A stretch of 64,000 nucleotides of DNA from Escherichia coli (GCF_048403405.1 NZ_CP183129.1); one strand, 5' to 3'. Numbered from the stretch's first letter, positions 24,935 through 27,130 are shown. Notes: a model not told the origin generated them from the sequence alone. Translations and numbers: made by a program.

Positions 24935-25396
24935 ATGATTGAATGGCAAGATCTGCATCACTCTGAATTATCGGTTTCCCAGCTTTATGCCTTATTACAA
25001 CTGCGTTGCGCGGTGTTTGTTGTTGAGCAGAATTGCCCTTATCAGGATATCGATGGTGATGATTTGACGGGGGATAATCGCCATATTCTCGGTTGGAAAA
25101 ATGATGAACTGGTGGCGTATGCGAGGATTCTGAAAAGTGATGATGATCTTGAGCCGGTCGTTATTGGTCGGGTGATTGTTAGTGAAGCGTTGCGTGGCGA
25201 AAAAGTGGGGCAGCAGCTGATGAATAAAACACTCGAAACATGTACGCGTCACTGGCCTGATAAACCTGTTTACCTCGGGGCGCAGGCGCATCTGCAAAAC
25301 TTCTACCAGAGTTTTGGCTTTATCCCTGTGACGGAGGTCTATGAAGAAGATGGTATCCCACACATTGGGATGGCACGCGAGGTAATTCAGGCGTAA
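24935..25396 (+). CDS. elaA: GNAT-family N-acetyltransferase ElaA
   Basis: 153-aa ORF matching recalled ElaA. Confidence 0.9.
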   Translation: MIEWQDLHHSELSVSQLYALLQLRCAVFVVEQNCPYQDIDGDDLTGDNRHILGWKNDELVAYARILKSDDDLEPVVIGRVIVSEALRGEKVGQQLMNKTLETCTRHWPDKPVYLGAQAHLQNFYQSFGFIPVTEVYEEDGIPHIGMAREVIQA

Positions 25397-25450
25397 TCAA
25401 TAACCCTTGTCTATAGTTAGTGACAGGTTTTACGCAAATGGAGAACGAGA

Positions 25451-25756
25451 ATGTCTAATCAGTTTGGTGATACACGTATCGATGATGACCTGACGCTGCT
25501 TAGTGAAACACTGGAAGAGGTGCTCCGCTCCTCTGGCGATCCCGCCGATCAGAAATATGTTGAACTGAAAGCGCGTGCAGAAAAAGCGCTGGATGATGTG
25601 AAAAAACGGGTTAGCCAGGCTTCAGACAGTTATTACTATCGGGCGAAGCAGGCTGTTTATCGTGCTGATGACTACGTCCACGAAAAACCCTGGCAAGGAA
25701 TTGGTGTGGGTGCGGCCGTTGGGCTGGTACTAGGACTGTTGCTGGCACGCCGTTAA
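25451..25756 (+). CDS. elaB: DUF883-family membrane-anchored protein ElaB
   Basis: 101-aa ORF with C-terminal TM segment (GIGVGAAVGLVLGLLLARR). Confidence 0.9.
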   Translation: MSNQFGDTRIDDDLTLLSETLEEVLRSSGDPADQKYVELKARAEKALDDVKKRVSQASDSYYYRAKQAVYRADDYVHEKPWQGIGVGAAVGLVLGLLLARR

Positions 25757-25834
25757 AACCTCCCTACACCGGGGTACTGCATTTTTTTTGTAGTACCCCG
25801 TATAATGTGAGGCTTTTAACAGGGAGAGGTCCGC

Positions 25835-27130
25835 GTGCAATCACTTACTACGGCGCTGGAAAATCTACTGCGCCATTTGTCGCAAGAGATTCCGGCGACA
25901 CCCGGCATTCGGGTTATTGATATTCCTTTCCCTCTCAAAGACGCTTTTGATGCCTTGAGCTGGCTGGCCAGTCAGCAAACGTACCCGCAATTCTACTGGC
26001 AACAACGTAATGGTGATGAAGAAGCTGCCGTCCTGGGCGCGATTACCCGTTTTACGTCGTTGGACCAGGCACAAACGTTTCTTCGTCAGCACCCGGAACA
26101 CGCCGACTTACGCATCTGGGGGCTGAATGCGTTTGACCCGTCGCAGGGTAATTTACTTTTACCACGCCTCGAATGGCGACGCTGTGGCGGTAAAGCCACG
26201 CTGCGGCTGACGCTATTCAGCGAAAGCTCCCTTCAGCATGATGCGATTAAGGCAAAAGAATTTATCGCCACACTGGTGAGTATTAAACCCTTGCCTGGGT
26301 TACATTTAACCACCACCCGAGAACAACACTGGCCGGACAAAACGGGCTGGACGCAATTAATCGAACTGGCAACGAAAACCATCGCCGAAGGTGAGCTCGA
26401 CAAAGTGGTGCTTGCTCGGGCAACTGACCTGCATTTCGCAAGTCCGGTCAATGCGGCAGCGATGATGGCTGCCAGTCGTCGGCTTAATCTGAACTGCTAT
26501 CATTTTTACATGGCCTTTGATGGCGAAAATGCTTTTCTTGGCTCTTCACCGGAACGGCTATGGCGGCGGCGTGACAAAGCGCTGCGTACTGAAGCGCTGG
26601 CGGGAACGGTAGCAAATCATCTTGATGATAAGCAGGCGCAGCGGTTGGGTGAGTGGCTGATGGCGGATGATAAAAACCAGCGTGAGAACATGTTGGTGGT
26701 GGAAGATATCTGCCAACGATTACAGGCCGATACCCAAACGCTGGATGTTTTACCGCCGCAGGTACTGCGTCTGCGTAAAGTGCAGCATCTTCGCCGCTGT
26801 ATCTGGACTTCACTCAACAAAGCGGATGATGTGATCTGTTTACATCAGTTGCAGCCAACGGCAGCAGTTGCTGGCTTACCGCGCGATCTGGCGCGACAGT
26901 TTATCGCCCGTCACGAACCGTTCACCCGAGAATGGTACGCCGGTTCTGCGGGCTATCTCTCTTTACAACAAAGCGAATTCTGCGTTTCCCTGCGCTCAGC
27001 AAAAATCAGTGGCAATGTCGTGCGACTATATGCTGGCGCGGGCATTGTCCGTGGTTCCGACCCCGAGCAAGAGTGGCAGGAAATCGACAACAAAGCGGCA
27101 GGGCTGCGTACTTTATTACAAATGGAATAG
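25835..27130 (+). CDS. menF: Isochorismate synthase MenF (menaquinone pathway)
   Basis: 431-aa ORF with GTG start; chorismate-binding C-terminal domain; head of the men cluster. Confidence 0.94.

Follow-up and report, generated by a model that had tools for sequence, protein, structure and literature searches.

A U-tract-less hairpin between elaB and menF of Escherichia coli lies at the 3′ end of the elaA-elaB mRNA and within the menF promoter

Fold-back inhibition of translation on read-through transcripts was reportedly described for the transposase of IS10/Tn10 by Davis, Simons and Kleckner in 1985. At the other end of transcription units, the steady-state 3′ ends of many Escherichia coli mRNAs lie directly behind stable stem-loops without a U-tract (Dar and Sorek 2018, NAR; PMC6061677). 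Where transcription terminates diffusely further downstream, such stem-loops halt the exonucleases PNPase and RNase II, and the resulting RNA ends show a mild enrichment of C over G downstream (PMC6061677). Here, we investigated a short intergenic spacer of E. coli that can be compared with both systems and that we regard as probably a junction of terminator and promoter, with a single inverted repeat that is used by two transcripts and acts, as RNA, mainly as a protective hairpin.

The spacer between elaB and menF measures 78 nt in the analysed DNA of E. coli 042, a stretch of 64,000 nt that is called the window below and from whose first letter all positions are counted. Both genes are encoded on the + strand, elaB at 25451..25756 with its TAA stop codon at 25754-25756 and menF at 25835..27130 with a GTG start, according to the list of open reading frames and the RefSeq annotation of E. 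coli 042 and MG1655. Upstream lie elaA and, on the opposite strand, rbn, and downstream menD and menH; menF itself is a gene of the vitamin K2 (menaquinone) pathway. Since the spacer shows no difference from that of K-12 MG1655, published K-12 maps transfer directly to the window (window position = 2406478 − MG1655 coordinate).

Directly after elaB, the sequence at 25770-25800 reads cggggtactgc-a-ttttttt-t-gtagtaccccg and forms, on the + strand, a hairpin with a 5′ arm at 25770-25781, a U7 loop at 25782-25788 and a 3′ arm at 25789-25800, which is supported by the predicted fold, by conservation and by the position of an RNA end. An earlier note, made from the sequence alone, had described an 11-bp stem with one G·U pair; the RNA fold agrees with it and adds the closing pair A25781-U25789, which gives 12 pairs in total, with G25779.U25791 as the sole wobble and 7 U in the loop. 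The predicted energy of −20.9 kcal/mol compares with −4.95 ± 2.19 for shuffled sequences (z −7.28; 0 of 200 shuffles as good), and the reverse strand folds more weakly (−15.3 kcal/mol) because the G.U pair turns into C.A. With 12 bp and six G-C pairs, the stem is GC-rich and falls within the range of about 5-14 bp that is expected of an intrinsic terminator. A U-tract 3′ of the stem is absent, the next 8 nt (UAUAAUGU) containing four U of which none are adjacent, and a terminator scan that required at least 5 T in 8 gave no call at the hairpin. The interval 24800-26800 produced only two chance snoRNA matches in Rfam 15 (E ≤ 10), both elsewhere in that interval. A terminator for a minus-strand gene was also considered and rejected, as there is no convergent gene and the minus-strand fold is the weaker one.

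Two independent types of published data place the steady-state 3′ end of the elaA-elaB mRNA (...CCCCGUAUA-3′) at the same base, position 25804 on the + strand. In the Term-seq data of Adams et al. 2021 (PMC7815308, Supplementary file 1), a 'primary' elaB 3′ end is given at MG1655 2380674 (−) in all three growth-condition sheets, with mean reads of 54,112 in the LB OD 0.4 sheet and 221,851 in a later sheet; the layout of this table was calibrated on the sgrS row, where the listed base occupies position 51 of 61. The same coordinate is listed as a 'novelTTS' of full-length primary transcripts by SMRT-Cappable-seq (Yan et al. 2018; PMC6131387), and it corresponds to window position 25804, which lies 4 nt beyond the stem, within the TATAAT hexamer that follows. 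The elaA-elaB transcripts begin at MG1655 2381565, upstream of elaA (window 24913), and of the 30 reads at this start, which come from the single data set behind the read-through figures, 10 end at 25804 and 16 pass through, so that about 38% of the transcripts stop at the hairpin site (PMC6131387). No reads end within 50 bp downstream of 25804, the median read-through is 199 nt and reaches into menF, and a read-through transcript elaA-elaB-menF is also listed (PMC6131387). The hairpin is a leaky 3′-end structure of the elaA-elaB mRNA. The proposal that it is unlikely to be a classical elaB terminator consequently holds for its form, as it has no U-tract and received no scan call, but not for its position, since the elaB mRNA does end there by two methods.

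An RNA end at +4, so close to the stem and without a U-tract, is not the usual release point of intrinsic termination, and what is found instead is a precise steady-state 3′ end right after a stable U-tract-less stem-loop, a feature of the class of Dar and Sorek. The absence of the U-tract, the 199-nt median read-through and the mildly negative GC skew downstream (−0.1 to −0.2 at 25880-26000) appear to fit that class. No bicyclomycin-sensitive (Rho) region is listed for MG1655 2380100-2380699 (Adams et al., Supplementary file 2; PMC7815308), an interval where low elaB expression and transcripts from the menF promoter confound the signal; Rho-dependent termination downstream is thus unsupported, although elaB is weakly expressed in that condition. 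Two further candidates were rejected: if polymerase were blocked by the open complex at menF, the 3′ end would lie about 60 nt away from the observed position, and an Hfq-dependent 3′UTR small RNA would have a U-tail, which is missing here.

Immediately after the hairpin, the hexamer TATAAT (25801..25806, + strand) matches the −10 consensus at six of six positions, as had been pointed out before, and is separated by 28 nt from the GTG of menF at 25835. The suggestion that this hexamer belongs to a menF promoter, with a transcription start just downstream of 25806, is confirmed by the SMRT-Cappable-seq operon table, in which a start at MG1655 2380664 on the reverse strand heads the units b2265-b2264 and b2265-b2264-b2263 (PMC6131387). 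This site, determined from 5′-triphosphate-selected full-length reads, equals window position 25814 (+), the first T of CTTTT, and represents the start of menF-menD(-menH); it lies 8 nt downstream of the hexamer, where a promoter 5′ end is expected at about 6-8 nt, and menF transcription does not start only far upstream. Read-through from the elaA promoter into menF exists beside this local start. The hexamer is TATA.T in all of 34 species, with the variants TATAAT, TATACT and TATAGT, as would be expected for a −10 element. The T-run with which the menF leader begins (25814..25817, +) is likewise conserved, its TTT being invariant in the alignment of 34 species, as is the Shine-Dalgarno (SD) region AGGGAGAGG at 25821..25829 (+), 6-14 nt upstream of the GTG.

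A −35 element near TTGACA at a distance of 16-18 bp was not found, the best candidates read from the sequence being TGCATT (17 bp spacer) and CTGCAT (18 bp spacer) with two of six matches each, and a consensus promoter scan called no promoter at TATAAT. The terminator and promoter scans are silent at this locus because the −35 is poor and the U-tract missing, not for want of function. A sigma-32 promoter, suggested by the resemblance of CCCCGTAT to CCCCATNT, was rejected, as the start site fits TATAAT and a −35 match is lacking. As DNA, the hairpin spans positions of about −44 to −14 in the menF promoter; nothing was found in favour of the earlier idea that it occludes or modulates this promoter. 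In a study of CsrA in EPEC that mentions menF, MenF-GFP reportedly showed no significant change. The supplement of the Cappable-seq study (PMC4782308) has no entry for the locus. Promoter activity is seen in Salmonella and E. cloacae, where luciferase is expressed from cloned PmenFDHBCE regions (PMC11619404).

The comparison with other Enterobacteriaceae was based on 80 elaB loci from other species and 80 metagenome loci with the −10 and T-run motif. A hairpin folds in 59 of 60 distinct orthologous sequences (median −15.5 kcal/mol), within a layout that recurs 5′ of menF after either elaB or elaA: CTCCCT, about 4-8 nt, GGGGTACTGC-loop-GCAGTACCCC, GTATAAT, GTGAGGTTTTTAAC, AGGGAGAGG, about 5 nt and GTG. 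The outer stem of 7-8 bp (GGGTACT/AGTACCC) does not vary between genera that share only about 65% identity in their MenF proteins. A plain RNA hairpin would not need an outer stem so frozen in sequence, which hints at an additional constraint at the DNA level; the double duty of the stem for the end of an mRNA and for a promoter may explain it. The inner stem and the loop vary freely, with compensatory swaps such as CCU/AGG (UBA3516), AUA/UAU (Lelliottia nimipressuralis) and GCC/GGC with a bulge (Huaxiibacter), and the distance between the GGTAC and GTACC blocks is 13, 14 or 15 bp depending on the species. Among stem cells, G.U (38) outnumbers A.C (12), and the + strand gives the more stable fold in 38 of the 60 sequences (22 otherwise), a substitution pattern that weakly favours the + strand. 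Judged from these alignments, the variable spacing, the compensatory inner stem and the G.U excess favour a hairpin at the RNA level over a protein site of fixed geometry, with a strand asymmetry that is modest. RNAalifold on a MAFFT alignment kept only four invariant pairs, and column-based covariation was weak.

In the more distant Cedecea, Atlantibacter, Franconibacter and Enterobacter sp. R1, a classical stem-plus-U-run terminator follows elaB and precedes cGTATAAT, which indicates that the promoter is older than the hairpin arrangement. Conversely, three lineages with the gene order rbn-elaA-menF lack elaB but retain the hairpin-promoter module directly after elaA, so that the module belongs to the upstream region of menF and is not tied to elaB itself. 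Among E. coli records, 5412 of 5422 show at least 99% identity over the 101 nt surrounding the hairpin, which, as estimated from identity bands, are about threefold less divergent than the flanking 471 nt. Forty records sampled evenly down the ranking comprised 30 that are identical to the window, nine with one base change and one at 98%. The variant A25792C was present in all three variant records fetched, including ATCC 25922, and is common in E. coli; despite the resulting 1 × 1 mismatch in the uppermost part of the stem, folding of the hairpin is preserved (−16.6 kcal/mol). The loop of one A25792C strain has T7 in place of T8.

The reading that we prefer combines these observations as follows. 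In RNA from the elaA promoter (start 24913), the repeat folds into the stem-loop with which the elaA-elaB mRNA ends, the last base being 4 nt beyond the stem, and the stop is leaky because there is no U-tract. Most likely, the hairpin acts mainly as a barrier to 3′-to-5′ exonucleases, such that longer, diffusely terminated read-through RNA would be trimmed back to it, perhaps in addition to some weak hairpin-dependent termination. As DNA, the same 31 bp take up the spacer and the −35 region of a menF promoter of the sigma-70 type, with a perfect −10, no recognisable −35 and a start at 25814. Since this start lies downstream of the hairpin, the menF mRNA from its own promoter does not contain the hairpin.

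It is also conceivable, though in our judgement unlikely, that the inverted repeat is chiefly a DNA operator and the RNA hairpin a by-product: a dimeric regulator (SdiA, a LexA-like protein or another one) would bind GGGTACTGC-N9-GCAGTACCC, whose centre is about 29 bp upstream of where menF transcription starts, and modulate or repress menF. The half-sites GGGTACT/AGTACCC are indeed invariant in 34 of 34 aligned species amid flanks that cannot be aligned, the module stays with menF where elaB is absent, and the strand asymmetry in stability is just 38 versus 22. Yet the spacing of 13, 14 or 15 bp would turn the half-sites relative to each other by up to about 70 degrees, the changes in the inner stem preserve pairing and not sequence, and the RNA 3′ end maps exactly at the hairpin. 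The consensus of LexA and lux boxes is CTG-N10-CAG. The inverted half-sites TACTG and CAGTA of most relatives resemble those of a LexA SOS box or a LuxR-type (lux/SdiA) box, but the spacing in the window and in most species is N11, the E. coli 3′ half is degenerate (TAGTA in 042 and K-12, TCGTA in B2 strains such as ATCC 25922) and some species keep the hairpin while losing CTG/CAG; an operator of either specific type was rejected for the N11 spacing and the degenerate E. coli half-site. In E. cloacae, sdiA represses a PmenFDHBCE fusion 105-fold, and in Salmonella it has a weak activating effect, whereas the E. coli menF fusion is unaffected by SdiA (PMC11619404), and the action of SdiA on the menF promoter is not necessarily direct (PMC12086679). 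The protein-binding palindrome put forward in the earlier note is thus disfavoured by the variable half-site spacing, the compensatory inner stem, and an inner 3′ half that is both degenerate and polymorphic in E. coli.

About equally improbable is a factor-independent, two-tier terminator, in which the upper hairpin would sit on a lower helix of CCUC (25759-25762) and GAGG (25809-12), preceded by an A-tract and followed by CUUUU (25813-17), with release at about 25816-25820 and trimming of the tail to 25804. The A-tract and CCUC at 25755..25762 (+) form the 5′ strand of this outer helix and pair with GAGG-C-UUUU at 25809-25817, and the minimum-free-energy fold of 25754-25820 includes it (−28.2 kcal/mol, z −5.7). 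The lower helix is improved in E. albertii and Escherichia sp. MOD1 (CCUCAC or CCUCAU with GUGAGG), being perfect in E. albertii (CCUCAC/GUGAGG), intrinsic terminators are typically flanked by an A-tract and a U-tract (PMC6061677), and the proportion of transcripts that stop at the site is substantial (the 38% given above). Against this, no SMRT-Cappable-seq reads end in the 50 bp beyond 25804, and the lower helix has only 4-6 bp across an internal loop of 6 × 9 nt, followed by 4 U. The helix is moreover specific to Escherichia, as it was not conserved in the compared orthologous loci outside this genus, where the hairpin, the −10 and the T-run persist, and the T-run coincides with the menF start, which is another ground for its conservation. 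Least probable, and in our view quite remote, is an endonucleolytic origin of the end at 25804, with RNase E cutting the AU-rich single strand GUAUA/AUGUG directly behind the hairpin in read-through elaAB-menF RNA and so parting a stable elaAB message from menF. Read-through RNA exists, the end is located in an AU-rich unpaired stretch with U at +2, and its distance of 4 nt from the stem is too short for the usual release by intrinsic termination; the cleavage preference of RNase E is matched here in part only, and exonuclease trimming accounts for the end equally well.

Besides the hairpin, the preferred reading as a terminator-promoter junction includes a segment that would act on the menF leader. 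The anti-SD segment CUCCCU (25760..25765, +) is complementary to the core of the menF SD, AGGGAG (25821-26), and occurs only on RNA from upstream of the menF promoter. As the menF start at 25814 sits between the two arms, in the manner of a fold-back system, a helix between them is possible only in RNA that enters from upstream. The CUCCCU motif is kept in most genera, and in many of them the complementarity is longer, with both arms changing together. Upstream and SD arms are, for instance, ACCCUCCCU/AGGGAGGGU in Salmonella, AAUCCCCUCCC/GGGAGGGGAUU in Phytobacter, CUUCUCCC/GGGAGAAG in Leclercia, CUCCCCCG/CGGGGGAG in Pluralibacter and GAACCUCCCU/GGGGAGGUUC in Trabulsiella, and a paired change distinguishes Enterobacter (AACC...GGUU) from Huaxiibacter and Lelliottia (GACC...GGUC). 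In Yokenella and one metagenome lineage, the pairing is retained in spite of inserted bases between the T-run and the SD.

Co-evolution was assessed by comparing per-sequence duplex energies of cognate and permuted pairings. For 29 lineage representatives, cognate duplexes averaged −17.97 kcal/mol against −15.52 ± 0.43 for permuted ones (z −5.7; 0 of 200,000 permutations), and a first set of 19 representatives gave −18.0 against −15.76 ± 0.52 (p about 1e-5). Column-wise pairing reached a modest 76.6% versus about 50% with the partners slid, column-wise tests being weak because the register of the anti-SD segment shifts between genera. The anti-SD helix co-evolves with the menF SD across genera. 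It is not uniformly strong: Klebsiella-like lineages keep CUCCCU with weak pairing (−7 to −11 kcal/mol), the pairing is weakest in lineages without elaB, and E. albertii and one Escherichia clade have lost CUCCCU, the CCCU being replaced by sequence that strengthens the lower helix. The E. coli duplex, at −11.5 kcal/mol, is one of the weakest and ranks 28 of 29.

Partition-function folding predicts that the SD is completely buried in the long read-through RNA and much more open in the short RNA from the menF promoter in Salmonella, Leclercia, Silvania, Phytobacter, Pluralibacter, Trabulsiella, Yokenella and Huaxiibacter, with unpaired probabilities for long versus short RNA of 0.00/0.58 in Salmonella, 0.00/0.53 in Leclercia, 0.00/0.36 in Phytobacter and 0.00/0.42 in Pluralibacter. 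For E. coli 042, burial of the SD in the read-through RNA is not predicted (0.58 in the long versus 0.58 in the short RNA), and the effect of the anti-SD segment in E. coli is probably small. In such relatives, pairing of CUCCCU with the SD would bury the ribosome-binding site of menF in read-through RNA only and might thereby silence its translation. We propose tentatively, and with less assurance than the junction itself, that many Enterobacteriaceae may translate menF only from the transcript of its own promoter, the elaA-elaB read-through RNA being silent and probably short-lived, and that the helix would have been strengthened, weakened or replaced according to lineage, with a terminator-like outer helix instead in Escherichia.

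Taken as a whole, the junction is compact but ordinary and does not overturn current understanding. Both the 3′ end at 25804 and the start at 25814 appear as rows in genome-wide tables, and no discussion of them was found in the literature searched. What matters for annotation is that a U-less hairpin closes the elaA-elaB unit 10 nt ahead of the menF start and that menFDHBCE has its own promoter without a −35, with some read-through from elaA-elaB into menF. The 78 nt hold much, in that the inverted repeat serves at once as the end structure of an mRNA and as promoter DNA. Only the co-evolving anti-SD helix of the relatives may be new. If it functions as predicted in Salmonella, Enterobacter and their relatives, it would offer a simple case of promoter-specific translation, insulating a metabolic operon from an RpoS-driven, stress-induced neighbour by a design that was gained and lost between genera, and it would bring the fold-back logic of IS10 to a housekeeping operon.

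Compared with known systems, the promoter resembles sigma-70 promoters that have a consensus −10 and no −35, with its TATAAT, a start 8 nt on and invariant hexamer positions 2 and 6; it differs in having no TG of an extended −10, no −35 above two of six matches, and, as non-standard features, a conserved CCCCG before the hexamer and a T-run at +1. With intrinsic terminators, the hairpin shares a stable GC-rich stem-loop directly after the stop codon at which part of the transcripts end, but its U-run is in the loop, the RNA ends at +4 compared to about +7 to +9, and more than half of the transcripts pass through. The anti-SD segment resembles the fold-back system that IS10/Tn10 is said to use in that a sequence complementary to the ribosome-binding site is located upstream of the gene's own promoter, that only transcripts from outside form the helix and that the native start lies between the arms. 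In the case of menF, the system would serve a core metabolic operon, encloses a hairpin and the whole promoter within the helix, is weak in E. coli and has a predicted effect on translation. Among all of these, the class of Dar and Sorek is set apart from the locus by the position of the 25804 end inside the −10 of the next promoter, by the preceding A-tract and by a bicyclomycin data set that gives no flag, and it is matched by a GC-rich hairpin of terminator strength without a U-rich tail, a precise 3′ end a few nucleotides on, read-through RNA and a mild excess of C over G downstream.

The elements between elaB and menF persist where elaB itself is missing. Three lineages, represented by L093, L098 and L132 (Klebsiella-like), by L122 and L152, and by L103, L118 and L149, have the gene order rbn-elaA-menF and retain the hairpin (window 25770-25800, + strand), the -10 hexamer TATAAT (25801-25806) and the T-run (25813-25817) right behind elaA. 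It is in these elaB-less lineages that CUCCCU (25760-25765) pairs least strongly with the menF Shine-Dalgarno region (25821-25829), at -7 to -12 kcal/mol, and this region is itself altered there, e.g., to ACUCCGUGGAGG. Elsewhere, this complementarity is retained despite insertions between the T-run and the Shine-Dalgarno region, which consist of a GAACCUGCC...GGCAGGUUC hairpin in Yokenella (L063:2880-2910) and of AAAACCGUGCCGUUUUU in a metagenome lineage (L128, L141, and L157) that starts menF with ATG in place of GTG.

Within E. coli, 9 records of a 40-record sample carry a single-base difference from the window. All three variant records that were fetched (L083, L084, and L085, among them ATCC 25922) have A25792C, which produces a U-C mismatch in the hairpin stem, and in one strain the loop T-run (25782-25789) is 7 rather than 8 bases long. 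The closest non-coli Escherichia have GCAG, forming a full G-C pair, whereas K-12 and 042 have GUAG.

The T-run at 25813-25817 takes in the position where the menF start was mapped and occupies columns 101-105 of the 34-species alignment, where it reads CTTTT in Escherichia and TTTTT in the other genera, with TTT invariant. With its start inside this run, menF could be subject to reiterative (slippage) transcription responsive to UTP, or the run could act as a U-rich translation enhancer in the menF leader. The conserved CCCCGTAT (25796-25803), which abuts and overlaps the -10 hexamer, matches seven of the eight positions of the sigma-32 -10 consensus, CCCCATNT. A sigma-32 promoter was nevertheless rejected as a reading of this element, as it lacks a matching -35 and TATAAT is a better fit to the mapped start site. 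Farther upstream, SMRT-Cappable-seq tables place the elaA start site at window 24913 (MG1655 2381565) and that of the divergent rbn at 24897 (MG1655 2381581), merely 16 bp apart, and the two promoters therefore lie back to back.

In Pantoea and Erwinia loci where menF is not adjacent (L016, L021-L029, and others), a strong GC-rich hairpin, such as GGGCGCGAC...TCGCGCCC, follows the elaB stop by about 10-40 nt, and a clean U-run is often missing here too (...GAUUCCUG...). Ending in a U-poor hairpin may be habitual for elaB in general. Four metagenome contigs (L092, L104, L127, and L131) matched the search pattern by chance and share an unrelated conserved stretch, GGCCAATGCATTGCGGCCTAACGCCAATACCCCGTATAATCGACGGTTTTCGCAACCCTTGCCTTCCCGC..., that has the look of a promoter with a structured RNA or leader behind it, in another organism.

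LexA and lux-type boxes resemble the TACTG-N11-(C/T)AGTA arrangement at 25775-25795, although its half-sites are separated by a gap one base longer than theirs. A menF promoter fusion of E. cloacae showed 105-fold, sdiA-dependent repression, and the corresponding E. coli fusion showed no sdiA-dependent repression (PMC11619404).
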